Below, piece after piece: positions 31,113 through 43,614 of a stretch of DNA of 64,000 nucleotides. The stretch's first letter is position 1. Each line of letters opens with the position of its first letter. The position numbers and the translations under genes are program-made. The DNA lies in assembly GCA_964565645.1 (NCBI GenBank), contig CAZMFQ010000007.1, forward strand, positions 1 to 64,000. The letters are read 5' to 3'. Below the pieces are notes generated by a model. That model searched no databases and was not told the DNA's origin. It worked only from the letters and a program-made list of their open reading frames with translations. Source of the stretch: an uncultured Eubacteriales bacterium. Its GTDB lineage: Bacteria > Actinomycetota > Coriobacteriia > Anaerosomatales > JAHIQC01.

Positions 31113-31252
31113 ATGCGGCTGGTTGCATGGAGCGCACAGCTCGCCCGTCGGGCCTGCTGATCGGACCAAGAGATGTCCTGCGCGAAGGAGGTGTACACGG
31201 GATGGGTCCAATACGAGTTCACTCAACGACAGCAATCAAGGAGGTAGTCTCC

Positions 31253-32596
31253 ATGCTCAAGCGCACGCTGCCGCTGGCCGGCCTCGTAGCCGCGCTGGTA
31301 TTGGCTCTCCCCGCTTTCGCGTTCGCGGCCGACCCCAACGGGGCGGACACGCTTGCGGCGGACCCCACTCTCGCGACGACGTTCATCTGGATGCTTGTCG
31401 CAGCGTTCCTTGTCTATTTCATGCAGGCAGGCTTCGCCATGGTCGAGGCCGGGTTCTGTAGAGCCAAGAACGCCACGAACCTGATGATGAAGAACCTGCT
31501 CGACTTCGTTATGGGGTCGCTCGCGTACTTCGCGATCGGCTTCGCCCTCATGTACGGCGCCGACAAGGCGGGCATCGTCGGAACGACCGGCTGGTTCATG
31601 GCCGGCGGCAACTACGATGTGACGGTCTATCGTGACTTCATGTTCCAAGTCGTCTTCGCCGCTACCGCGGCGACCATCGTATCGGGCGCGGTCGCCGAGC
31701 GCCTCAAGTTCTCCGCGTACCTCGTGTACTCCGTCGTGATCAGCGCGGTGATCTACCCGCTGTACGGTCACTGGGTCTGGGGCGGCGGTTGGCTCTCCCA
31801 GATGGCCACTCCCTTCCACGACTTCGCGGGCTCAGGCGTGGTCCACGCGCTCGGCGGCTTCGTCGGTCTCGCAGGCGCCATGGTGCTCGGTCCGCGCTTC
31901 GGCAAGTACGACAAGGACGGCAAGCCGAAGGCCATCCCGGGTCACAACATCCCTCTCGCAGCCCTGGGCGTGTTCATCCTGTGGTTCGGCTGGTTCGGCT
32001 TCAACCCCGGCTCGACCCTCAACGGCAACGACCTGCGCATCGCAGTGATCGCCGTGAACACCAACATGGCTGCAGCCGCGGGTTCTGCGATCGCCCTGCT
32101 GATCGTCAAGCTCAAGACGGGCACCTTCGACATCGGTATGGCTCTCAACGGCGCACTCGCCGGCCTGGTCGCGGTCACCGCGCCCTGCGCTGTCATCAGC
32201 GGTGGCTCCGCGATCGCCATCGGCGCCGTCGCCGGCGCACTGGTGGTCATGGCCATCTACCTGGTGGAGAACATGGGTATCGATGACCCGGTGGGCGCGT
32301 TCTCCGTCCATGGCGTCAACGGCATCTGGGGCCTGCTTGCCGTCGGTCTGTTCGCCGACGGGACCTACGGCGGCGTCACCGGTCTGTTCTTTGGCGGTGG
32401 TACGGCGCAGCTCGTATCTCAGATCATCGGCGCCGCAGTGGTCGCCGCATGGGCGTTCGGACTCGGCTTCATCACCTTCAAGGGGATGGACCTCGCATTC
32501 GGTATCCGCGTCACTCCCGAAGAGGAGATCCGCGGACTCGATATCGACGAGCATGGTAGCTCGGCATACCCGAACTTCCTGGTAGTGGAAGAGTAG
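31253..32596 (+). CDS. amtB: Ammonium transporter AmtB
   Basis: Signal peptide plus Amt-family motifs (FIWMLVAAFLVYFMQAGFAMVEAGF, DFAGSGVVHALGGFVGLAGAMVLGPR); AAGGAGG RBS. Confidence 0.95.
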   Translation: MLKRTLPLAGLVAALVLALPAFAFAADPNGADTLAADPTLATTFIWMLVAAFLVYFMQAGFAMVEAGFCRAKNATNLMMKNLLDFVMGSLAYFAIGFALMYGADKAGIVGTTGWFMAGGNYDVTVYRDFMFQVVFAATAATIVSGAVAERLKFSAYLVYSVVISAVIYPLYGHWVWGGGWLSQMATPFHDFAGSGVVHALGGFVGLAGAMVLGPRFGKYDKDGKPKAIPGHNIPLAALGVFILWFGWFGFNPGSTLNGNDLRIAVIAVNTNMAAAAGSAIALLIVKLKTGTFDIGMALNGALAGLVAVTAPCAVISGGSAIAIGAVAGALVVMAIYLVENMGIDDPVGAFSVHGVNGIWGLLAVGLFADGTYGGVTGLFFGGGTAQLVSQIIGAAVVAAWAFGLGFITFKGMDLAFGIRVTPEEEIRGLDIDEHGSSAYPNFLVVEE

Positions 32597-32625
32597 ACAC
32601 CAGACCCACCGAGGAGGTGAAGACC

Positions 32626-32964
32626 GTGAAGAAGATAGAAGCGGTGATCCGGCCCGAGAAGCTGGACGACGTCAAGGCGGCCCTCGAGGCGGCCGGTTAC
32701 CCCGGACTGATGCTCACGCGCATCGAAGGCCATGGCAAGCAGAAGGGCCTCATGCAGCAGTTCCGCGGTCGCCAGTACAAGGTGGAGATGCTGCCGAAGT
32801 ACAAGATCGAAGTCGTATGCGCCGACGGTGATTGCGCCAAGATCATCGAGGCGGTATCGAGCTCGGCCCGCACAGGCGAGGTCGGCGACGGCAAGATCTT
32901 CGTCAGTGATATCTCCGACGTGACCCGTATCCGCACCGGAGAGTCCGGAGACGTGGCCATCTAG
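32626..32964 (+). CDS. glnK: P-II nitrogen regulatory protein
   Basis: MKKIEAVIRPEKL...RGRQYKV (T-loop Tyr) ...GDGKIFVSDI...IRTGE. GTG start at 32626 chosen for GAGGAGG spacing; the track start of 32617 is too close to the RBS. Confidence 0.9.
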   Translation: MKKIEAVIRPEKLDDVKAALEAAGYPGLMLTRIEGHGKQKGLMQQFRGRQYKVEMLPKYKIEVVCADGDCAKIIEAVSSSARTGEVGDGKIFVSDISDVTRIRTGESGDVAI

Positions 32965-33044
32965 CGACACACCGTGCGAGTGACGACAGGGCGGGGGCTC
33001 GTCGGCCCCCGCCCTGCGCACACCCGGACCCAGGGAGCGAAGCG

Positions 33045-33383
33045 ATGAAGCGGATCGAAGCCATACTGCGCCCGGAGCGGCTCGAAGAAGTGCGCTCGGC
33101 CCTCGACGAACTCGAGCGGATGGGCATGACGGTCATCGAGACCAAGGGGCACGGCACACAGGGCGGCCTCTCGCAGACCTGGCGGGGGGGCGAATACCAC
33201 GTGACCCTCGTCCCGAAGGTCATGGTCATCGCCGTGGTCCACGACCATGAGGTCACGGAGACCATCGAGACCATCGTCGCGGCCGCACGGACCGGCGTCA
33301 TGGGCGACGGCAAGATCTTCGTCACGCCGGTCGAGCAGGTCATCCGCATCCGGACCGGCGAGTCCGGCGCCGAGGCGCTCTAG
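33045..33383 (+). CDS. Second P-II family protein (paralog)
   Basis: MKRIEAILRPERL...WRGGEYHV...GDGKIFVTPV...IRIRTGE. Confidence 0.85.
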   Translation: MKRIEAILRPERLEEVRSALDELERMGMTVIETKGHGTQGGLSQTWRGGEYHVTLVPKVMVIAVVHDHEVTETIETIVAAARTGVMGDGKIFVTPVEQVIRIRTGESGAEAL

Positions 33384-33433
33384 AGGCCGGGCGATCGGCG
33401 CTTCACGACAGAGCGTCCGACCGGAAACGAAAA

Positions 33434-33472
33434 GAAGGCCCGCGCAACGAGGCGCGGGCCTTCTGTCTTCTC
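33434..33472 (+). terminator. Rho-independent terminator after glnK2
   Basis: GAAGGCCCGCGC-AACGAG-GCGCGGGCCUUC followed by UGUCUUCUC. Confidence 0.55.
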
Positions 33473-33906
33473 ATTGCCGGGATGGCCTTCGCACCGCCCG
33501 AGGTTCCCCTCCAAAAGGATATCCTTGGGAGCTTTCGGCCAAGTGAGCGGTCCCTCTTGGCCTCATCCCACGTGATCCCAGGGGCTTTTGCCCGGGTCTT
33601 CGGCGGCTGAACTCGTCTTGTGTCCTACCGAACAAGTCGCGCCTACCTGACGCGTACCGATCGAACCGACATTGTACGAACCTACACTCCTGACGTCTCT
33701 CTCAGCATGCGGCCAGCTCGAAGCCCTTCATCTGCCATCCCGGCATAAATCGAATCTCTCACCGGGTGATCCACACCTCTTTTGTCAACGTGCCGATCGC
33801 CATCACTGATCGCCTTTGAGTCTATATACCCGCGGAACCGAGACTCGCACGCAAAGAGGCGACCCCGGTTCGGGGCCGCCTCCGGATGGCGCATGTGACT
33901 CCGGTG

Positions 33907-34617
33907 CTACTTGAGCGAGTCGAGGGTCTTGCGCATCTGGTTCTCGGACTGCTCGCCGAGGAGCCGTGTCGCCTCGGTACCGTCGGTGTTGAGGAACACG
34001 AACGTCGGCACCGCGGTGATACCGTACTTCTGGCTCAGGCTCTGGGCCTGTGGATCCGTGTCGGCGTTGATGAGCCGGAACTCGACCTTGCCCTTGTACT
34101 GCTTCTCTAGCCCGTCGACCACGGGCTTCATCGTTTTGCAGCTGGGTCACCAATCTGTGTAGAACTCGTAGAGCACCGGCGTGTCGGTCGCCTTCTCGAC
34201 GGGTGCCGGGGCGACCGCGACGGTCCCCCGCTCGATGTCGCCGTTCCACGCGACCATACCCTGATCGAAGTGGTAGATCTTCTTGAAGCCCGCCTGCGTC
34301 AGGTACTGAACGGCCGACGCCGATCTGGAACCTGTCGCGCAGTAGACGGCCACCGGCTGGGCCGGGTCCAGAGCGGCCGCCTGAGCCGCCATCTGGTCGA
34401 CCGGGATGTTGATGGCACCGGGCACGTGACCTGCCTCGAACTCCCCGGGCGTCCGGACATCCACAACGGTGACGCCGCTTCCCGCGAGTTCGGTGAGCTT
34501 GGTCGAGTCGACCACCTCGACCTGCGCACCGCCGCTCGGACTGAACATGGCAAAGCCCAGCGCGACGACCGCGATGGCTGCCACCGCCCAGACGATGGTC
34601 TTGGTGTTCTTGTTCAT
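33907..34617 (-). CDS. Exported rhodanese-thioredoxin fusion interrupted by one in-frame TGA (34147..34149) at the first Cys position of the Trx CxxC motif; candidate selenoprotein (W-U-P-S-C-K) or a nonsense pseudogene
   Basis: Upstream ORF (34147..34617) has a signal/TM, a rhodanese domain with catalytic loop CATGSRS, and ends ...VLYEFYTDW-TGA. The next 5 codons read PSCKT, then MKPVVDGLEKQYKGKVEFRLINADTDPQAQSLSQKYGITAVPTFVFLN..., which aligns to thioredoxin ([20 protein letters not shown]...KYGIRGIPTLLLF). The two ORFs share one frame and are separated only by the TGA. Confidence 0.6.
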
Positions 34618-34657
34618 CGGGCTCCGCTCCTCGAAGGCCGTACATTCCTGTCGGAGT

Positions 34658-34673
34658 ATACCCCTAGGGGTAT
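34658..34673. promoter_or_regulatory. Perfect 16-bp palindrome ATACCCCTAGGGGTAT in the divergent promoter region, CsoR/CstR/RcnR-type operator-like
   Basis: GC-tract palindrome with AT-rich ends about 40 bp upstream of the rhodanese-Trx start codon; resembles published CsoR-family operators (ATACCC...GGGTAT type). Confidence 0.4.
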
Positions 34674-34773
34674 CTGCCGTGCAACTCCTCGGCTATGATC
34701 GCCGAGGTCGGGGATAATCACGTGTATCGCACCTCACACGCTCCGAGCAAGAAAGCGGCCAGCGTGTGGCCAT

Positions 34774-37700
34774 ATGGGGGAACACGTCACAGCCGTCTGG
34801 AGTCTTCGCGTGCCCGAGCCTGCCGAGCATCCCGCCCAACCACGAACGCATCGCCCGTTCCGAGACGAGCTCTACTCGGCAGAGCGCCTGACACGGTGCG
34901 CCCGCGAACTGGCCGAGCAGCAGTCCTGGACCGACGAGCTGGCAAGCGCTCCGTCCCCCTTGTTCGAGATGATCGCCGACGCCTCCGCGGGCCTCTCCGC
35001 GGACAACTCGATGTTCTCCGAAGCCGTCCGCTCGCAACACCCCGTCGCGCCGGCGGCAGAATGGTTGCTGGACAACTTCTACCTCATCGAGGAACAGGTG
35101 CGGCTCGTCCGCGATGATCTGCCGGCCGGGTACAGCCGGGAACTCCCCCGGCTGACGCGCGGCGCGTTCGCGGGGTACCCGCGGGTCTTCGAAGCGATCG
35201 TCGAACTGCTCTCGCACACCGATTCAAGACTCGACGAGAGCGTGCTCACACAGTTCATCGACGGGTTCCAGGACGTCTCACCGCTCTCGATCGGAGAGAT
35301 ATGGGGCATCCCGATCGCCCTGCGCATCGCGCTCGTCGAGAACCTGGCCCGCCTGTCCGCACGCGTCGGAGAGACGCACCGGTCGACCCGCATGGCCGAC
35401 GAGTGGGCGGATCGCCTGCTGCTCGCCGTGCCCGACGGCTCGGATGCGCTGCGCGCGCTGATCGACGAGCTCGAGGAGCGCGTCGGCCTCGTGGACCCGA
35501 CGTTCCTCATGCGCCTCGCGCAACGGCTCTCGGGCCAGGACACCGGCGCCGACATGCTCGGTGCATGGCTCGAGCGGCGCTTGCGGGAGTCAGGGATCGA
35601 CCTGGGCGCCCTCAGCCACGAACTACAACAGGTCCAGGCGGCCGACCAGGTCTCGATCGCGAACTCGATAACCGCGATCCGCTTCCTGGACGCCTACGAG
35701 TGGCGCGGGTTCTTCGAGCATGCGAGCCTCGTGGACCAGGTCCTGCGCGAGGACCCCGTGGGCGTCTACCCGCATATGGACTTCAAGAGCCGCGACCGCT
35801 ACCGTCACGCTCTCGAAGGCATCGCCCGTCGCTGCCCCATGACCGAGATCGCTGTCGCCGAGGCGGCAGTCAGCCTGGCTCTCGACTCCATGACCCACGA
35901 CGCGACCGACGAGATCTCCGCGCACGTCGGCCACTACCTTATCAGCGGTGGTCGCTACGACCTCGAGTCGGCGGTCGCCTACCGCCCGCACCTGCGCGAG
36001 AGACTCTACCGCGGCCCGCTCGCGCGAAAGGGGCTCTTCTACTGGGGGATGCTCGGGATCACCACCCTGGCGCTGGCTGCGGTGCTGCTCGCCGCCATCG
36101 CCTCCTCGGGGGCCTCTACGGCGGCGCTCGCCGCCGTGATGCTCATCGCTCTGGTGCCGCTCTCGGATCTCGCGCTCAACATCACGAACCGGACGGCTGC
36201 GTGGGTCTTCCCGCCCCGTATCATGCCCAAGCTCGACTTCCTCTCTCCGGTCGCGGAGGCGCATCGCACGCTCGTGATCGTGCCGACACTCCTCTCCTCG
36301 GTCGGCGCGGTCCGCCACGTGCTCGACAACCTCGAGGTCGCGTACCTCGCCAACCGGGACGATGAGATCTACTTCGGGCTCCTCGGCGATCTCAAGACCG
36401 CTGCCGAGGAGCGCCTTCCCGGAGACGACGCGGTCATCGAGGCGGCCGTCGAGGGGATCGAGGCGCTCAACGACCGGTACCTCGTCGAGCACGGACGCCG
36501 GCCGTTCTGCCTGTTCGTGCGAGAGCGTCGGTACAGCGAGCAGGAGCGGACGTGGATGGGTTGGGAGCGCAAGCGCGGCGCGCTCACGGAACTCAACCGG
36601 ATGCTGCGCGGCTCCAACTCCACGTCGTTCTCCCACCGGATCGGCGAGGAGGCTGCGCTTGCCGCGGTGACGTTCGTGCTCACGATCGATTCGGACACCG
36701 TGCTCACCCGCGACGGGGCACGCAAGCTCATCAGCACGATCGCGCACCCGCTCAACCGCGCGGTGCTCCTGCCGGGCGACCGGCGGGTGTACATGGGCTA
36801 CGGGCTCATCCAGCCGCGCGTCGGTATGTCGCTGCCGGCGTCCTCGCGCTCGTTCTTCGCGTGGCTGTACTCGGGCGTCACCGGAGTGGACCCGTACGCC
36901 GGCGCGGTCTCAGACACCTACCAGGACGTGTTCGGCGAAGGAAGCTTCACCGGCAAGGGCATCTACGAGGTCAGCGTCTTCAACGCGGTGCTGGAGGGCC
37001 GTTTCCCCGAGGGGCGACTGCTGTCCCACGACCTGATCGAGGGCTGCTACCTGCGGGTCGGCCTCGCGAGCGACATCGAGGTGCTCGACGACCACCCTTC
37101 GAGTTACCTGTCCCATATGGCACGCATGCACCGCTGGGTGCGCGGCGACTGGCAGACGCTGCCGTGGCTGGGGGCGACGGTGCCCGCGGAAGGACGTCGC
37201 GAACGCAACGTGCTCTCGCCGCTGCACCGCTGGAAGCTGTTCGACAACGTGAGACGTTCGCTCGTGGCCCCGGCGTTGCTCATGCTCATGACCCTGGGCT
37301 GGACGGTTCTGCCGGGCCCCGCGTGGGCCTGGCCGCTCGCGATGTCACTCGTGGTCTTCTTCCCGGTCTACTTCAGCCTCGCGGACTCGATCGTGTTCCG
37401 CTCCCGCGAGGTCTCGTTCTCGACCACCATGGAATCAGCGTGGCGTGATTTCGGCCGTGACTCGGCGCGCGCCCTCCTGACGCTCTCACTGCTCCCTTAT
37501 CAGGCCTACGTGATGATCGATGCTGCCGTTCGCGCCGTCTGGCGCATGACGGTCTCGCAACGGCATCTGCTTGAATGGGAGACCGCGGCCGACGCCGACC
37601 GGCGTCTGGGCGTGGGCCTGTCCGGATTCGCGCGCAAGCTGGCGCCCTCCTCGGCGGTCGCCCTGCTGCTGCTCGCCCCCGCGGCGCTGCAGAGCCCGGC

Positions 37701-40700
37701 GCGCCTGGGGGTCTCGGCCGCACTCGCGCTGCTGTGGGCGGCAGCCCCCCTGATCGCGTGGCGCGTCTCGCGCACGAGTGTCCCGGCCGAGCGTGAACTC
37801 ACCCCTGCCGAGGAGTCGGAGCTACGACGCCTGGCGCGACGCACGTGGCGCTTCTTCGAGACGTTCGTCACCTCCGAAGGCCACCATCTGGCGCCAGACA
37901 ACTTCCAGGAGGACCCCAACGGCGAGGTCGCGTGGCGGACCTCGCCCACGAACATCGGTCTGCAGCTCCTTGGCAATCTCTCCGCGTACGACCTGGGGTA
38001 TCTCGACCTGACCGGTCTGATCGGACGAACCGCCGACACGCTTGCGGCCATGGCGGGCCTGAAGCGGTTCCGGGGGCACTTCTACAACTGGTACGACATA
38101 CGGACCCTCGCGCCGCTGCCTCCCGAGTACGTCTCGACCGTGGACAGCGGGAACCTCGCGGGGCATCTGCTCGTGCTCCGGATCGGCCTGCTCGAGGCCT
38201 CCGAAGCGCCGGTCCTGGGCGCGCAGTTGCTCTCGGGGATCGCTGATACGGCCGCGCTGGCGATCGAGGACCTCGTGACCGAGCAGGTCGCCGTCGAGTC
38301 CGCGCCCGCCCTGCGCGACCTGCGTGAACAGCTCGACGAGCTGGCCCGGGACGCCTCTCTCGAAGAGCCACCGCGCGACATGGCGCGCTGGGACGCCGTG
38401 CTCGAACGCATCGAGACCATGGCCGCCGCGGTGGATCGATCCGCCTCGGCGTTGTTCGGTGATGTCGATCCGCCGACCGCCGCGTCGCCACACCCGGGCT
38501 CCGCCGTCGCACGGGCCCACGCCTCGGTCGTCGCGGTGCTCGCCGCGGTCGAGGCCGCACGCTCCACCATCTCGTCGCTCACCCCATGGGCGGCGCATGC
38601 AGCGGATGTGCCGCAGGCGGTCCTCGAAGACCCACGCGGGGCGTCGCTGGTCCCGCTTCTCGATCACGTCCCGAGCCTCGTGGGTCTCGCCGAGGGACTG
38701 GGCGACGCACTCGCGGCGCTTTCCTCGATCGCCGAGGAGCCGCCGGGAGACTCCTTGGCGGAACGCGAAGCGGAACGCGCCTGGGCGACCGGGATGCTCG
38801 ACGGCGTGCTGGGAGCGCGACCGGCCGCGGCACAGCTCCTCGGCCAGCTGCACCTCGACGCGGCGATGGCGCGCGAGATGTGGGAGCACACCGACTTCAC
38901 GACCCTCTTCGACGAGCAGCGGCTGCTGTTCTCGATCGGCTACAACACGGCGGAGGGACGACTCGATCCGTCGTACTATGACATGCTCGCCTCGGAATGC
39001 CGGCTCGCGAGCTTCCTCGCGATCGCCAAGGGCGACATCCCGCAAGAGCACTGGTTCCGGCTCGGTCGGGCGATCACCCAGACCGCGGGCGGACGCGCGC
39101 TGCTGTCGTGGAGCGCCTCGATGTTCGAGTACCTCATGCCGCTGCTGGTCATGCGCTCGTGGCCGATGACCCTGCTCGACCAGACCTACGATTCGGTGGT
39201 GCGCCGGCAGATCCAGTACGGGCGCGAACGCGGCGTTCCGTGGGGGGTCTCGGAATCGGCGTTCAACGCCAAGGACGCGGGGCTCGTGTATCAGTACCAG
39301 GCCTTCGGTGTGCCGGGGCTCGGGCTGAAGCGCGGGTTGTCCGACGACGTGGTCGTCGCCCCGTACGCGACGGTGCTCGCCCTGCCCGTCGCACCCGGCG
39401 AGGCCATCGCGAACCTCCACGAACTCGCGGGCCAGGGAGCCCGGGGCCGCTACGGCTTCTACGAGAGCCTCGACTACACGCCGGGCAGGGTGCCGGCGGG
39501 ATCCAGCCGCGCGGTGGTGAGGGCGTACTTCGCTCACCACCAGGGCATGAGCTTCGTCGCCCTCGCCAACGAGCTTTCGGGCATACCGATGCACGATCGG
39601 TTCCACCGCGATCCGATGGTCGCCTCGGCGGAGCTGCTCCTGCAGGAGCGGGTGCCCCGGCACGTGCAACTCGCGACGCCCAACGTGGGCGAGGTGGAGC
39701 ACGTGCGCTCGGTGCGCGAGCTGCCGCCCCCCGTCACCCGCGCCTACCCGCTCGCCGACACGCCCGTGCCTGCGACGCACTTCCTGTCCAACGGCCGCTA
39801 CTCGGTCATGGTCACCAACGGGGGCGGGGGCTATAGCCGCTGGCAGGACGTCGCGATCAGCCGCTACCGCGAGGACGTGACGCGCGATTGCTGGGGACAG
39901 TTCTTCTACCTGCGCGACACCGCGACCGGCCGCGTGCACAACGCCGCGAGCAACCCGTGCCCCGAACGTCCCGACGAGTATCACGTGACGTTCGCGCATG
40001 ACAAGGCCGAGTACCGTCGCATCGACGGGGACATCGAGGTGCACACCGAGATCTCCGTGAGCCCCGAGGACGACGCCGAGATCCGCCGCATCGGCATCAC
40101 CAATCATGGGCGCACCCGCGTCGAGCTCGAACTGACGTCCTACTTCGAGCTCGCGATGGCCGATCAGGCGGCCGATCAGGCGCACAAGTCGTTCTCGAAC
40201 CTCTTCGTCGAGACCGAGGCGCTCGACCCGATGCGGGCTCTGCTCTTCTCGCGGCGCCCGCGTTCCGCCGAGGAGCGTCGGATCTGGGGTGTCCACGTCC
40301 TCGCTTGCGAGGACGGCGACGAGTGCGACTGGACCTACGAGACCGACCGCGCTCGGTTCCTCGGCAGGCTCAACGGGGCCGAGGCCCCCACCGCCGTCAG
40401 GGCAGGCGGGCCGCTCAGTCGCACGACGGGACCGGTGCTCGACCCCTGCTGCGCGATCCGCAAGACGGTCATGGTCGAAGGCGGCGAGAGCGTGCGCCTC
40501 GTGTTCACCACGGGAGTGGCCCAGACGCGTGAGGAAGCGGTCCGTCTGGCCGAGAAGTACGGCGACCCGCGCAGTGCGCAGCGCGCCATCGACCTGGCGT
40601 GGACGGCGGCCCAGATCGAACTGCGCGACCTGGGTATCACCCCGGCGGAAGCCGTCGTGCTCGAACGTCTGGCGTCACGCCTCCTGCTCACCGACCCCGC

Positions 40701-43614
40701 CTCCGTGCTCAAGATCAAGACCCCCGTGGAGAACGGGCTGCAGATGTCGGGCCTGTGGTCCCTCGGCATCTCCGGCGACCTGCCGATCCTGCTCGTGCGC
40801 ATCGAAGAGCCGGAACACGCCCCCCTCGTGCGTCAGGCGCTTCTCGCCCACCAGTACTGGCGCCACAAGGGCCTCGTCTCCGACCTCGTGATACTCAACA
40901 CGCGACCGACCGCGTACTCCGACGAACTCGACGACCGCCTGAGGATGCTCGTGCGCACGGGCCACGCGCTTCAGATGCTCGATCGTCCGGGCGGGGTGTT
41001 CCTCCGCCGCTCCGACCAGATGCATCCCGACGTCCTCAACCTGCTGCTCACGGTCGCGCGCGCCACGCTCGACGGCGACAGCGGACCCCTCGAGGTCCAG
41101 CTCAACCGGCGTGTGCCGCGTGCCGAGGAGCCGCCCGCCCTCATGCCTGCGCGTGCGCCTGAAGCGTGGGCCGCCCCCTCGCCGCCCCGGCCGGACCTGC
41201 TCTTCGACAACGGATGGGGCGGGTTCGACTCGTCGGCGGACGAATACGTGATCGTGCTCGACGAGGGGCGCTGCACGCCCGCGCCGTGGATCAACGTGAT
41301 GGCATCGCCGGAGTTCGGCTGTATGGTCTCCGAAGCCGGAATCGGCTGCACCTGGGCGCTCAACAGCCATGAGAACCGCATCTCCACGTGGAACAACGAC
41401 CCCGTCTCGGACGGGTCCGGCGAGGTCATATACCTGCGCGATGAGGAGACCGGGGAGTTCTGGAGCCCCACGCCGCTGCCGGCCCGGGGGCCCGGCACCT
41501 ACACCGTCCGCCACGGCCGGGGCTACACGCGCTTCGAACACGAGTCCCACGGGCTCGAGCAGCGGCTCGAGTGGTTCGTGCCCGTCGAGGACCCGGTGCG
41601 CGTGGTGCGACTGACGCTGCGCAACACGGGCGATACGGTGCGGCGACTGTCCGCGACGCAGTTCGTGGAGTGGTCGCTCGGCAGTTCGCGCAGCAAGGCG
41701 CAGCACCTGGTCGTGACGTGGTTCGACGCCGAGCACCAGCTTCTGACCGCGCACAACCACTTCAACATGGACTTCCCGGGACGCGCCGCGTTCCTGGCCA
41801 CCGACGCCGAACTGCACTCGTATACCGGGAGCCGCACCGAGTTCGTCGGTCGCAACCGCGGACCTGCAGACCCAGCGGCGATGGGCCGCAAGCGCCTCGG
41901 CGGGCGCACCGGTCGCTTCCACGACAACTGCGGCGCTCTGATGGTCGCCCTGGAGCTGGCGCCCGGCGAGGAGCGCAGCGTCTGCTTCCTGCTCGGGCAG
42001 ACGGACACCCTTCAGCAGGCTCGCGAGCTCGTGGCCGCCTATCGCGACCCGAGCCGGGTCGACGCCGAACTCGCCGGTGTGTGCGAGCAATGGCGGCGCG
42101 TGCTCGGCAGCGTGCGAGCCCGGACGCCGGACCCGGCGCTCGACCTGCTCGTCAACGGCGCGCTCCTGTACCAGGCCCTTGCCTGCCGGATCTGGGGTCG
42201 CACCGCGACCTACCAGTCGAGCGGCGCGTTCGGCTTCCGCGACCAGCTCCAGGATTCGCTCGCGCTGCTCCTGGCACGTCCGGACCTCGTGCGCGAGCAG
42301 ATCGTCGAGGCCTCACGACACCAGTTCGCAGAGGGCGATGTCCTGCACTGGTGGCAGCCCTCCTCGGGCCGGGGAGTCCGGACGCGGATCACCGACGACC
42401 GACACTGGCTGCCGTTCGTGGTCGCCGAGTACCTCGACGTGACCGGGGACCGAAGCGTTCTGGACGAGGTCACCCCGTTCATCGAAGGACCCGAAGTCGA
42501 TCCCGATCGTGAGGACAACTACCTCCAACCGGCGCTCTCCGAGCAGGCCGTGAGCGTCTACGAACACTGTGTGGCGGCCCTGGAGTCCGGGACCGGGGTC
42601 GGCGACCACGGACTCCCCCTCATGGGTGGCGGCGACTGGAACGACGGCATGAACCGCGTCGGCATCGGGGGCCGTGGCGAGAGCGTGTGGCTCGCCTGGT
42701 TCCTGGCGACGGTGCTCAGGCGCTTCGCCCCGATCTGCGAGATGCGCGGAGAGGCCGGCCGCGCAGCCGAGTACCGCAGGCGGGCCCAGGCGTTCATAGA
42801 GGCCGCCGAGGAGTCGGGATGGGACGGATCGTGGTATCGCCGCGCGTACTTCGACGACGGCACCCCGTTGGGATCACGCTCCTCGGCAGAGTGCAGGATC
42901 GACGCCATCGCGCAGGCATGGGCGACGATCAGCGACGGTGCGGACCCGGGCCGGGCCCAGATGGCGCTCGACGCCGTGGAGGACAAGCTCGTCGACCGCG
43001 AGCATGGACTGATCGCGCTGCTCACACCGCCGTTCGACACGATGCCGCACGACCCCGGCTACATCAAAGGGTACGTCCCCGGCGTTCGCGAGAACGGCGG
43101 TCAGTACACGCATGCGGCCATCTGGGTGGTGCTCGCTCACCTCCTGCGTGGCGATGGCGACGAGGGGCACGGCCTTCTGAGCATGATCAACCCGATCAAC
43201 CACGCACGCACCGACGAAGAGGCGGAACACTACAAGGTCGAGCCCTACGTGGTCGCCGCGGACGTGTACGGGGCGGCACCGCATGCGGGCAGGGGCGGCT
43301 GGACCTGGTACACCGGCTCCGCTTCGTGGTTCTACCACGTCGCGGTCCGCAACCTCTTGGGCTTATGGGTCGAGGACGTCGAAGGGATCCCGCATCTGCG
43401 GTTGGATCCGTGCATCCCGAGATCATGGAAGGGCTACACGCTCACGTACACGCACGGAACGACGACCTACCGGATCGGGTTCGAGAATCCGCGTGGGGTC
43501 AACCGCGGCGTGGCGTACGTCGAACTCGATGGGATGAGGCTCGAGAGCGCCTCGGTGCCGCTGCGCGATGACGGCGGCAGCCACGACGTGCGGGTGGTGC
43601 TCCTCGGCGGTTAG
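34774..43614 (+). CDS. ndvB: Cyclic beta-1,2-glucan synthase-like giant protein (NdvB/Cgs/ChvB architecture: N-terminal domain + TM region + GT84 glycosyltransferase + C-terminal GH94 phosphorylase-like domain)
   Basis: 2946-aa ORF. GT region has TIDSDT, WERKRG and HRWVRGDWQ motifs. C-terminal region has the GH94 signatures GGGDWNDGMNRVG...GESVWLAWF and a six-hairpin (alpha/alpha)6 region. Confidence 0.8.
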   Translation: MGEHVTAVWSLRVPEPAEHPAQPRTHRPFRDELYSAERLTRCARELAEQQSWTDELASAPSPLFEMIADASAGLSADNSMFSEAVRSQHPVAPAAEWLLDNFYLIEEQVRLVRDDLPAGYSRELPRLTRGAFAGYPRVFEAIVELLSHTDSRLDESVLTQFIDGFQDVSPLSIGEIWGIPIALRIALVENLARLSARVGETHRSTRMADEWADRLLLAVPDGSDALRALIDELEERVGLVDPTFLMRLAQRLSGQDTGADMLGAWLERRLRESGIDLGALSHELQQVQAADQVSIANSITAIRFLDAYEWRGFFEHASLVDQVLREDPVGVYPHMDFKSRDRYRHALEGIARRCPMTEIAVAEAAVSLALDSMTHDATDEISAHVGHYLISGGRYDLESAVAYRPHLRERLYRGPLARKGLFYWGMLGITTLALAAVLLAAIASSGASTAALAAVMLIALVPLSDLALNITNRTAAWVFPPRIMPKLDFLSPVAEAHRTLVIVPTLLSSVGAVRHVLDNLEVAYLANRDDEIYFGLLGDLKTAAEERLPGDDAVIEAAVEGIEALNDRYLVEHGRRPFCLFVRERRYSEQERTWMGWERKRGALTELNRMLRGSNSTSFSHRIGEEAALAAVTFVLTIDSDTVLTRDGARKLISTIAHPLNRAVLLPGDRRVYMGYGLIQPRVGMSLPASSRSFFAWLYSGVTGVDPYAGAVSDTYQDVFGEGSFTGKGIYEVSVFNAVLEGRFPEGRLLSHDLIEGCYLRVGLASDIEVLDDHPSSYLSHMARMHRWVRGDWQTLPWLGATVPAEGRRERNVLSPLHRWKLFDNVRRSLVAPALLMLMTLGWTVLPGPAWAWPLAMSLVVFFPVYFSLADSIVFRSREVSFSTTMESAWRDFGRDSARALLTLSLLPYQAYVMIDAAVRAVWRMTVSQRHLLEWETAADADRRLGVGLSGFARKLAPSSAVALLLLAPAALQSPARLGVSAALALLWAAAPLIAWRVSRTSVPAERELTPAEESELRRLARRTWRFFETFVTSEGHHLAPDNFQEDPNGEVAWRTSPTNIGLQLLGNLSAYDLGYLDLTGLIGRTADTLAAMAGLKRFRGHFYNWYDIRTLAPLPPEYVSTVDSGNLAGHLLVLRIGLLEASEAPVLGAQLLSGIADTAALAIEDLVTEQVAVESAPALRDLREQLDELARDASLEEPPRDMARWDAVLERIETMAAAVDRSASALFGDVDPPTAASPHPGSAVARAHASVVAVLAAVEAARSTISSLTPWAAHAADVPQAVLEDPRGASLVPLLDHVPSLVGLAEGLGDALAALSSIAEEPPGDSLAEREAERAWATGMLDGVLGARPAAAQLLGQLHLDAAMAREMWEHTDFTTLFDEQRLLFSIGYNTAEGRLDPSYYDMLASECRLASFLAIAKGDIPQEHWFRLGRAITQTAGGRALLSWSASMFEYLMPLLVMRSWPMTLLDQTYDSVVRRQIQYGRERGVPWGVSESAFNAKDAGLVYQYQAFGVPGLGLKRGLSDDVVVAPYATVLALPVAPGEAIANLHELAGQGARGRYGFYESLDYTPGRVPAGSSRAVVRAYFAHHQGMSFVALANELSGIPMHDRFHRDPMVASAELLLQERVPRHVQLATPNVGEVEHVRSVRELPPPVTRAYPLADTPVPATHFLSNGRYSVMVTNGGGGYSRWQDVAISRYREDVTRDCWGQFFYLRDTATGRVHNAASNPCPERPDEYHVTFAHDKAEYRRIDGDIEVHTEISVSPEDDAEIRRIGITNHGRTRVELELTSYFELAMADQAADQAHKSFSNLFVETEALDPMRALLFSRRPRSAEERRIWGVHVLACEDGDECDWTYETDRARFLGRLNGAEAPTAVRAGGPLSRTTGPVLDPCCAIRKTVMVEGGESVRLVFTTGVAQTREEAVRLAEKYGDPRSAQRAIDLAWTAAQIELRDLGITPAEAVVLERLASRLLLTDPASVLKIKTPVENGLQMSGLWSLGISGDLPILLVRIEEPEHAPLVRQALLAHQYWRHKGLVSDLVILNTRPTAYSDELDDRLRMLVRTGHALQMLDRPGGVFLRRSDQMHPDVLNLLLTVARATLDGDSGPLEVQLNRRVPRAEEPPALMPARAPEAWAAPSPPRPDLLFDNGWGGFDSSADEYVIVLDEGRCTPAPWINVMASPEFGCMVSEAGIGCTWALNSHENRISTWNNDPVSDGSGEVIYLRDEETGEFWSPTPLPARGPGTYTVRHGRGYTRFEHESHGLEQRLEWFVPVEDPVRVVRLTLRNTGDTVRRLSATQFVEWSLGSSRSKAQHLVVTWFDAEHQLLTAHNHFNMDFPGRAAFLATDAELHSYTGSRTEFVGRNRGPADPAAMGRKRLGGRTGRFHDNCGALMVALELAPGEERSVCFLLGQTDTLQQARELVAAYRDPSRVDAELAGVCEQWRRVLGSVRARTPDPALDLLVNGALLYQALACRIWGRTATYQSSGAFGFRDQLQDSLALLLARPDLVREQIVEASRHQFAEGDVLHWWQPSSGRGVRTRITDDRHWLPFVVAEYLDVTGDRSVLDEVTPFIEGPEVDPDREDNYLQPALSEQAVSVYEHCVAALESGTGVGDHGLPLMGGGDWNDGMNRVGIGGRGESVWLAWFLATVLRRFAPICEMRGEAGRAAEYRRRAQAFIEAAEESGWDGSWYRRAYFDDGTPLGSRSSAECRIDAIAQAWATISDGADPGRAQMALDAVEDKLVDREHGLIALLTPPFDTMPHDPGYIKGYVPGVRENGGQYTHAAIWVVLAHLLRGDGDEGHGLLSMINPINHARTDEEAEHYKVEPYVVAADVYGAAPHAGRGGWTWYTGSASWFYHVAVRNLLGLWVEDVEGIPHLRLDPCIPRSWKGYTLTYTHGTTTYRIGFENPRGVNRGVAYVELDGMRLESASVPLRDDGGSHDVRVVLLGG

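Follow-up and report, generated by a model that had tools for sequence, protein, structure and literature searches.

An ATACC-N6-GGTAT palindrome conserved in rhodanese-selenothioredoxin promoters of uncultured Actinomycetota is a probable operator of a CsoR-family repressor

The DNA analysed here, referred to below as the window, comprises 64 kb (positions 1–64,000 of contig CAZMFQ010000007.1, assembly GCA_964565645.1) from an uncultured bacterium of the Actinomycetota. It contains a perfect 16-bp palindrome, ATACCCCTAGGGGTAT, at 34658–34673, with the sequence and position that the original prediction had given. On the minus strand, the palindrome is followed after 40 nt by the start codon (ATG, 34617) of a gene for a predicted exported rhodanese fused to a selenocysteine-containing thioredoxin (the rhodanese-thioredoxin gene). 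It is a real, strongly conserved predicted repressor-binding site of the promoter of this gene, and it is probably the operator of a CsoR-family (PF02583) repressor encoded in trans, of the persulfide-sensing type represented by CstR and by ScCsoR of Streptomyces coelicolor. What argues most decisively against a chance occurrence is the presence of the site at 51 of 62 orthologous loci.

Conservation and promoter context of the palindrome

Representative genomes from GTDB, one per species, were scanned with an alignment of the rhodanese-thioredoxin family (alignment A1), and 79 loci were obtained, nearly all from metagenome-assembled genomes (MAGs) of uncultured Actinomycetota/"Coriobacteriia" (individual loci are cited below by L numbers). 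The orthologue set consists of 62 loci with 39–69% protein identity, and the 51 positive loci carry an exact ATACC-N6-GGTAT not more than ~120 nt upstream of the start codon; the original prediction had named a lack of such conservation as one of two results that would refute it, and on this point it stands. Together, the loci and the window (1.14 Mb) contain 54 copies of ATACC-N6-GGTAT, all upstream of the rhodanese-thioredoxin gene, compared with 0.38 predicted from base composition. The spacing is N6 in all 54 copies, and spacings of N3–N5 and N7–N10 are absent at the orthologous loci. Among 53 unique promoters, all ten arm bases are invariant and the four central bases are free, with C at position 5 in 43 promoters and G at position 10 in 52, and the form kept throughout the clade is ATACC(C)-N4-(G)GGTAT. 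The perfectly symmetric centre (CC-TA-GG) is limited to the closest relatives of the window. The start codon follows the operator at a median distance of 33 nt. The closest orthologue of the cysteine form (L002, 71% identity) has ATACCCCAGGGGGTAT at the equivalent place, in flanking DNA that has diverged.

Within the window, which has a G+C content of 65.7%, ATACCCCTAGGGGTAT is the sole match even when three mismatches are allowed (dinucleotide shuffles gave 0.02). No second operator was found in the window, where ATACC-N6-GGTAT with up to two arm mismatches occurs 12 times (12.5 expected). The exact 16-mer appears in no paper of the literature searched.

The original prediction had placed the palindrome in the promoter of the rhodanese-thioredoxin gene and had called for a comparison with the −10 and −35 elements. 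In the predicted window promoter (TTGCAC-N18-TATACT), 13 spacer bases out of 18 belong to the palindrome, whose right arm runs into, and overlaps, the −10-like box, so that the predicted operator covers part of the predicted core promoter. This geometry is maintained in the orthologues: TTG is found at −11 to −9 relative to the operator (T at −10 in 48 of 53), and the hexamer at operator positions 13–18 is TATnnT in all 37 of the sigma70-type promoters. A simple scan for consensus promoters called none, as TTGCAC matches the −35 consensus TTGACA at three of six bases; the promoter assignment is therefore based on cross-species conservation. A site for a MerR-type activator was considered and rejected, as it needs a palindrome centred in a spacer of 19–20 bp; here the palindrome is displaced onto the −10 box, in a spacer of 18 nt.

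A second type of promoter was observed in the orthologue set. The pattern GGCAY-N5-TTGC, which resembles a sigma54 −24/−12 element, is found in 16 of the 53 unique promoters at a fixed −20/−21 from the operator (for example L015:1160–1186, L016:7908–7934, L022, L025 and L035). In these promoters the "−10" hexamer often ends in C, and the operator position is unchanged. GGCAY-N5-TTGC is also kept at L021, L033, L040 and L051, which have no palindrome, and several operator-free loci that keep this pattern have no −10 box. Neither a GAFTGA enhancer-binding protein nor an RpoN box was found within ±8 kb of the orthologues, and the sigma54 likeness is one of pattern only. Actinomycetota are not generally known to possess sigma54.

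Relation to known CsoR-family operators

Operators of the CsoR family are TAC/GTA inverted repeats around G/C tracts and are bound by two tetramers (PMC3902906). The window palindrome, ATAC-CCC-TA-GGG-GTAT, has a TAC...GTA inverted repeat flanking C/G tracts, the CsoR/RcnR-type form in which the original prediction had classed it. Moreover, it equals in both arms and spacing the 16-bp ATACC-N6-GGTAT defined by electrophoretic mobility shift assay (EMSA) for the persulfide sensor ScCsoR (PMC7533328). Besides its own promoter, ScCsoR binds those of two target genes, one for a rhodanese and one for a PDO-rhodanese, and polysulfide releases the protein from DNA via Cys37 and Cys66 (PMC7533328). 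The two systems come from the same phylum, have rhodanese-type sulfurtransferases as targets and place the site over the core promoter (at −9 for one of the ScCsoR sites). The gene downstream of the window palindrome, a rhodanese joined to a thioredoxin, is of the sulfurtransferase class found among CstR and ScCsoR targets. In contrast to the situation here, where a single site and no linked regulator are found, ScCsoR is encoded in the cluster and autoregulated, and its promoters often carry two sites. The target also differs, being an exported rhodanese fused to a selenocysteine thioredoxin and located far from sulfur-oxidation genes.

The cst operons of Staphylococcus aureus, Enterococcus faecalis and Streptococcus mitis are repressed by CstR, a two-cysteine persulfide sensor that controls rhodanese/sulfurtransferase genes through an operator with ATACC...GGTAT arms that binds two tetramers (PMC8643695). 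The core operator of S. mitis, ATATACCCTTATGGGGTATAT, has N7 between ATACC and GGTAT (PMC8643695) rather than the N6 found here, and these systems differ further in belonging to Firmicutes and in encoding the regulator inside the operon. The operators of the copper-responsive CsoR of Streptomyces lividans (csoR, copZA1 and copZA2) share the TAC/GTA repeat around C/G tracts and have a right arm that enters a TATA-like −10 box. Their consensus, ATATACCCCTNAGGGGTATAT, is TAC-N9-GTA, equivalent to N7 between ATACC and GGTAT, and is bound with a tetramer:DNA stoichiometry of 2:1 (PMC3902906); they are one base longer than the window site, control copZ/copA efflux genes and respond to Cu(I). TTHA1953 of Thermus thermophilus is a further CsoR-family protein that is concerned with sulfur metabolism and not with metals. 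Half-site spacing matters for this sulfur-responsive protein as well, since a change of one base in either direction lowers affinity 10–15-fold (PMC10318464). Its site, TACNNTACNNNNGTANNGTA, is 20 bp long, and the organism belongs to another phylum.

The same motif was examined in other genomes by scanning the Joint Genome Institute (JGI) metagenome collection for ATACCCCNNGGGGTAT, which gave at least 120 loci; the counts that follow are among the matches listed. A CsoR-family open reading frame (ORF) is present in 29 of the 120 loci, and at least 12 of these ORFs start within 100 nt of the site. They match PF02583 "metal-sensitive transcriptional regulators" of Streptomyces, Nocardia, Mycobacterium and relatives in a database search. 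About 24 of the 27 full-length adjacent regulators have the fingerprint of CstR and ScCsoR, C-x29-C with no histidine at −4 of the second cysteine, and a copper-type histidine is found only in two low-GC regulators with CopZ/CopA neighbours. A Pfam survey of 150 ORFs that start next to the palindromes identified Rhodanese (18), Thioredoxin (9), Pyr_redox_2 (8, SQR/CoADR-type), Trns_repr_metal (8, PF02583), Lactamase_B (6, PDO-type), DUF302 (3), YgaP-TM (2) and E1-E2 ATPase (1) domains, and no transcription-factor family besides PF02583 is among the top 25 Pfam families of these ORFs. Several rhodaneses encoded beside the palindrome are lipoproteins destined for export, and at L083 and L188 the regulator gene occurs together with one for a thioredoxin. 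Fusion of an arm to TATnnT is enriched, with 93 of 152 N6 sites compared with ~34% expected. Besides these 152, the metagenomic loci contain a single N7 site, which gives the surveyed loci no power on spacing; the N6-versus-N7 argument thus rests on the literature.

The association is also found in a cultured organism. Streptomyces sp. NBC_01262 (CP108462.1) encodes the same type of regulator among genes for rhodanese, TauE, SQR-type, DsrC, DsrE and Prx proteins, and the 10-kb stretch contains five exact N6 sites and two with one mismatch, all in promoter regions, and no N7 site (N6 sites at L202:3674–3818, 4949, 5373, 8557 and 9290). One site is in the intergenic region beside an AhpC/Prx-type peroxiredoxin gene, facing an OsmC gene, and one of the sites with a mismatch is beside an SQR-type gene. 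This arrangement suggests that the ScCsoR-type regulon may extend beyond the four genes described in S. coelicolor. As a separate observation, made once, a CsoR-family ORF of a Candidatus Moraniibacteriota MAG (L076:240–575) is directly preceded by ATACC-N3-GGTAT (L076:245), a much shorter spacing than that of any characterised CsoR-family operator.

By these sequence-level tests, the predicted operator belongs with the known operators of ScCsoR and CstR. New here are the lineage, the unlinked regulator and the exported rhodanese-selenocysteine-thioredoxin target.

The regulator and alternative explanations

A CstR-type rather than a copper-type regulator is favoured because of the N6 spacing, the sulfur genes that flank the same palindrome in other genomes and the sensor-residue fingerprint of the regulators beside it, and the preference expressed in the original prediction is upheld on these grounds. 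We infer that a cognate regulator exists in this lineage, that its signal is persulfide and not copper, and that binding represses transcription. In such a scheme, the reduced repressor would occupy ATACC-N6-GGTAT, with two tetramers per site if the family stoichiometry applies, and would exclude RNA polymerase by covering the spacer and the −10 box. Reactive sulfur species (persulfide or polysulfide) would modify the two cysteines of the repressor, and the DNA would be released. The exported rhodanese-selenothioredoxin would then be made; its likely role would be the handling of sulfane sulfur or of mis-oxidised thiols outside the membrane.

Several results weigh against the assignment to a CstR-type repressor, and confidence in it is held at "probable" mainly because no cognate gene is seen near the site. 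The search for CsoR-family genes was performed by tblastn with probes and with a hidden Markov model (HMM) built from real matches, with filters off and with six-frame ORFs of at least 40 residues. It found none in the 64-kb window, as the original prediction had stated, and none within ±8 kb of the 62 orthologues, its sole match being the unrelated ORF at L076; nor is any other regulator gene conserved among the ORFs neighbouring the orthologues. CstR-type regulators are usually encoded beside at least one of their targets. When a CstR-like alignment was compared with a database of 5.8 billion proteins, the best 120 matches were all from classical actinomycetes and none from this lineage. The window has neither a second site nor sulfur-oxidation genes, 11 of the 62 orthologues have no palindrome, and the conservation of the right arm could partly reflect the −10 box. 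Furthermore, N6 is not exclusive to sulfur sensors, as five of the metagenomic N6 sites (L097, L100, L160, L181 and L195) precede CopA/CopZ-type genes, and the regulator adjacent to the site at L160 has the copper-type histidine.

These last sites, about 5 of the 120 listed, lend some weight to a copper(I)-sensing CsoR as the cognate repressor, with the rhodanese-thioredoxin in a copper-stress regulon where it might, for example, repair copper-catalysed mis-oxidation of exported cysteines. Extracytoplasmic thiol-disulfide oxidoreductases, such as thioredoxin-like proteins of the Scs/Dsb type, are tied to copper tolerance in other bacteria. A copper sensor would belong to the same protein family and recognise the same TAC/GTA and G/C-tract architecture (PMC3902906). 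It is nevertheless rather unlikely here: the copper sites of Streptomyces are ATACC-N7-GGTAT in a family that is sensitive to spacing, and all 54 copies found here are N6; a single P-type ATPase is found beside the listed N6 palindromes, compared with the 18 rhodaneses, six PDO-type and eight SQR/CoADR-type proteins; and most of the adjacent regulators have no histidine ligand. No copper genes, and specifically no HMA or P-type ATPase genes, are annotated in the surveyed part of the window (~18.8–56.6 kb), and sulfur-oxidation and selenium genes are also absent from the annotation of this part. The lack of a nearby PF02583 gene, and the centre of the site, which in many orthologues is not a G/C tract (for example ATACCTATCAGGGTAT), would fit a regulator of another family or one specific to this lineage, whose site would resemble a CsoR operator by convergence. 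We consider this improbable as well. In arms and spacing the site equals that defined by EMSA for ScCsoR, the downstream gene is of a class that CstR/ScCsoR-type regulators control, and no other transcription-factor family is enriched beside the palindrome in the metagenomic loci listed. A literature search for ATACC/GGTAT led to CsoR of S. lividans, the csoR-cueA divergon of Bradyrhizobium and TTHA1953 of Thermus; the remaining matches were unrelated repressor studies, none of them by title on the 16-bp motif.

The palindrome might instead chiefly control the divergent giant GH94/GT2 gene, or might act on both genes from the intergenic region that they share. The giant gene and the rhodanese-thioredoxin gene are divergent neighbours in 50 of 57 loci, and the site lies ~100–140 nt from the start of the giant gene. 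Measured to the first ATG (34774) the distance is 101 nt, and to the GTG at 34810 it is 137 nt, so that the ~115 bp of the original prediction was roughly right. The operator, however, keeps a fixed offset to the −35 and −10 elements of the rhodanese-thioredoxin gene, occurs at three loci where the giant gene is missing and is lacking at seven that have the giant gene; for these reasons it is assigned to the rhodanese-thioredoxin promoter. Many orthologous intergenic regions retain the putative −10 region of the giant gene, TCGGGGATAAT (ATTATCCCCGA when read on the other strand), at a distance from the operator that varies, and the window site, ~35–60 nt upstream of this putative −10 region, would not occlude it. 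Control of the giant gene is thus very unlikely to be the main function of the site, and the giant gene is probably not under operator control. Least probable of all is that the palindrome binds no protein and is an extended −10 promoter element, or a DNA or RNA hairpin without a regulatory partner. In favour of this reading, GGGTAT runs directly into the −10 box, and other putative −10 boxes of this clade follow G-rich stretches (GGGGATAAT at 34710–34718 and GGGTATATA at ~33833–33825). Against a promoter element, the left arm ATACC, which is located in the normally unconstrained spacer, does not vary among 53 promoters and exactly complements the right arm, and the motif is kept in sigma54-looking as well as sigma70-type promoters. 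Against an RNA hairpin, the arms are fixed and never covary as RNA stems do, while the centre drifts, and the window site is upstream of the predicted transcription start.

The target gene, its neighbourhood and significance

The coordinates of the features discussed are summarized in Table 1. The rhodanese-thioredoxin protein contains Rhodanese (residues 45–125, 1.2e-21) and Thioredoxin (residues 144–233, 5.7e-17) domains according to Pfam, and a hydrophobic segment read from its N-terminal sequence is a putative anchor or export signal. The active-site loop of the rhodanese domain (CATGSR) is invariant in the family (alignment A1). ORF finders split the gene at a TGA codon (34149–34147), and the true stop is at 33907. 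The original prediction had considered a selenoprotein possible. TGA-P-[SAT]-C is present in 54 of 55 genomic family members, and 30 of 32 database homologues are truncated at ...YEFYTDW; the other two are cysteine forms that continue with CPSC. A hairpin resembling a selenocysteine insertion sequence (SECIS) is present in all family members and is kept even at the price of Gly/Arg substitutions, and its stem variants are compensatory (CCCGU/ACGGG, CCUGU/ACAGG, CCCCU/AGGGG, CCUCU/AGAGG and CCGGU/ACCGG). As judged by the UxxC motif and the covarying SECIS-like hairpin, the gene is a genuine selenoprotein gene. Nearly all members in the protein database are called as "rhodanese" proteins of 150–180 residues, and at L001 gene callers yield two ORFs of 156 and 74 residues in place of one gene; practically all genomes that carry the gene have it mis-annotated as two ORFs. 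The protein reaches the cut-off of no curated NCBIfam model, and the exact window protein was found on one short public contig only.

Table 1. Features of the rhodanese-thioredoxin locus in the window.
Feature	Position	Strand	Basis
Predicted operator, ATACC-CCTAGG-GGTAT (kept form ATACC-N6-GGTAT)	34658..34673	.	Sequence and orthologue conservation
−35-like hexamer TTGCAC, 5 nt upstream of the operator	34679..34684	-	Sequence; TTG conserved in orthologues
−10-like hexamer TATACT, its first three bases being the last three of the operator right arm	34655..34660	-	Sequence, orthologues
Shine-Dalgarno region, GGAGCGGAG	34622..34630	-	Sequence; GGAG-type motifs precede the start codon in orthologues
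Predicted membrane-anchored/exported rhodanese (CATGSR loop)-thioredoxin (U-P-S-C), 236 residues with selenocysteine	33907..34617	-	Pfam, alignment A1
In-frame UGA, predicted selenocysteine codon at the first position of the thioredoxin CxxC (W-U-P-S-C)	34147..34149	-	Homologue comparison
SECIS-like hairpin aGCCCGU-GGUCG-ACGGGCu, 22–23 nt after the UGA	34109..34127	-	Conserved, covarying
Giant GH94/GT2 cyclic-glucan-synthase-like gene (likely start GTG 34810; ORF from ATG 34774)	34810..43614	+	Pfam, synteny
Putative −10 region of the giant gene, TCGGGGATAAT, outside the operator	34708..34718	+	Intergenic conservation

The ORF of the giant gene encodes 2946 residues, and the L002 homologue has its called start at the position equivalent to GTG 34810. 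The window and L001 share a further inverted repeat, CCTCGGC-N7-GCCGAGG (34687–34707 in the window), which separates the divergent promoters; it is not kept in L002–L004 and is probably without function. On the other side of the rhodanese-thioredoxin gene, and convergent with it, amtB and two tandem P-II (GlnK/GlnB-type) genes (32617–32964 and 33045–33383) occupy 31127–33383 on the plus strand, and a convergent glnK is found within 2.5 kb downstream in 34 of 63 loci. Clustering of neighbouring ORFs was polluted by spurious high-GC ORFs and was usable for the giant gene and glnK; targeted tblastn replaced it. The wider window is origin-proximal housekeeping DNA, with gyrA/gyrB, a DEAD-box helicase and ABC transporters.

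An unannotated structured RNA of ~270–400 nt lies in the ~520-nt "empty" stretch between the rhodanese-thioredoxin gene and glnK, on the same strand as the former. It is located between the rhodanese-thioredoxin terminator and glnK at 33430–33835 (minus strand), with a covarying core at 33476–33744, and ends in a strong terminator (33460–33430). The RNA is found directly 3' of the rhodanese-thioredoxin gene in ~55 loci/species and nowhere else in the DNA surveyed. The predicted structure comprises 37 base pairs in seven helices, 21 of them with compensatory changes, and is closed by a helix between GCCGGGAUGGC (33744–33734) and GCCAUCCCGGC (33486–33476). In the alignment, 93.8% of cells pair, compared with 30–54% with slid partners, and none of 500 shuffles reached the observed values. 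The region shows no codon periodicity, and no Rfam 15 match was found in the window or in eight divergent genomes.

A more speculative proposal, to which we attach little probability, is that these elements form a lineage-specific extracytoplasmic module for reactive sulfur or selenium, with a CsoR-family sensor that might be tuned to selenide or polyselenide, two promoter classes under the same operator and an RNA that might be coupled to the gene. The sigma54-like promoter class, if true, would be unusual for Actinomycetota.

The predicted operator would carry the CstR/ScCsoR-type persulfide regulon beyond cultured Firmicutes and Streptomyces into a broad clade of uncultured Actinomycetota from subsurface and sediment, and could serve as a probe to fish out its regulator. 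With its invariant arms, N6 spacing and fixed promoter offset, it would offer a clean case for the avoidance of cross-talk between CsoR paralogues (N6 versus N7). The new type of target suggests that the sensing of reactive sulfur in the cytoplasm may also equip the cell surface.

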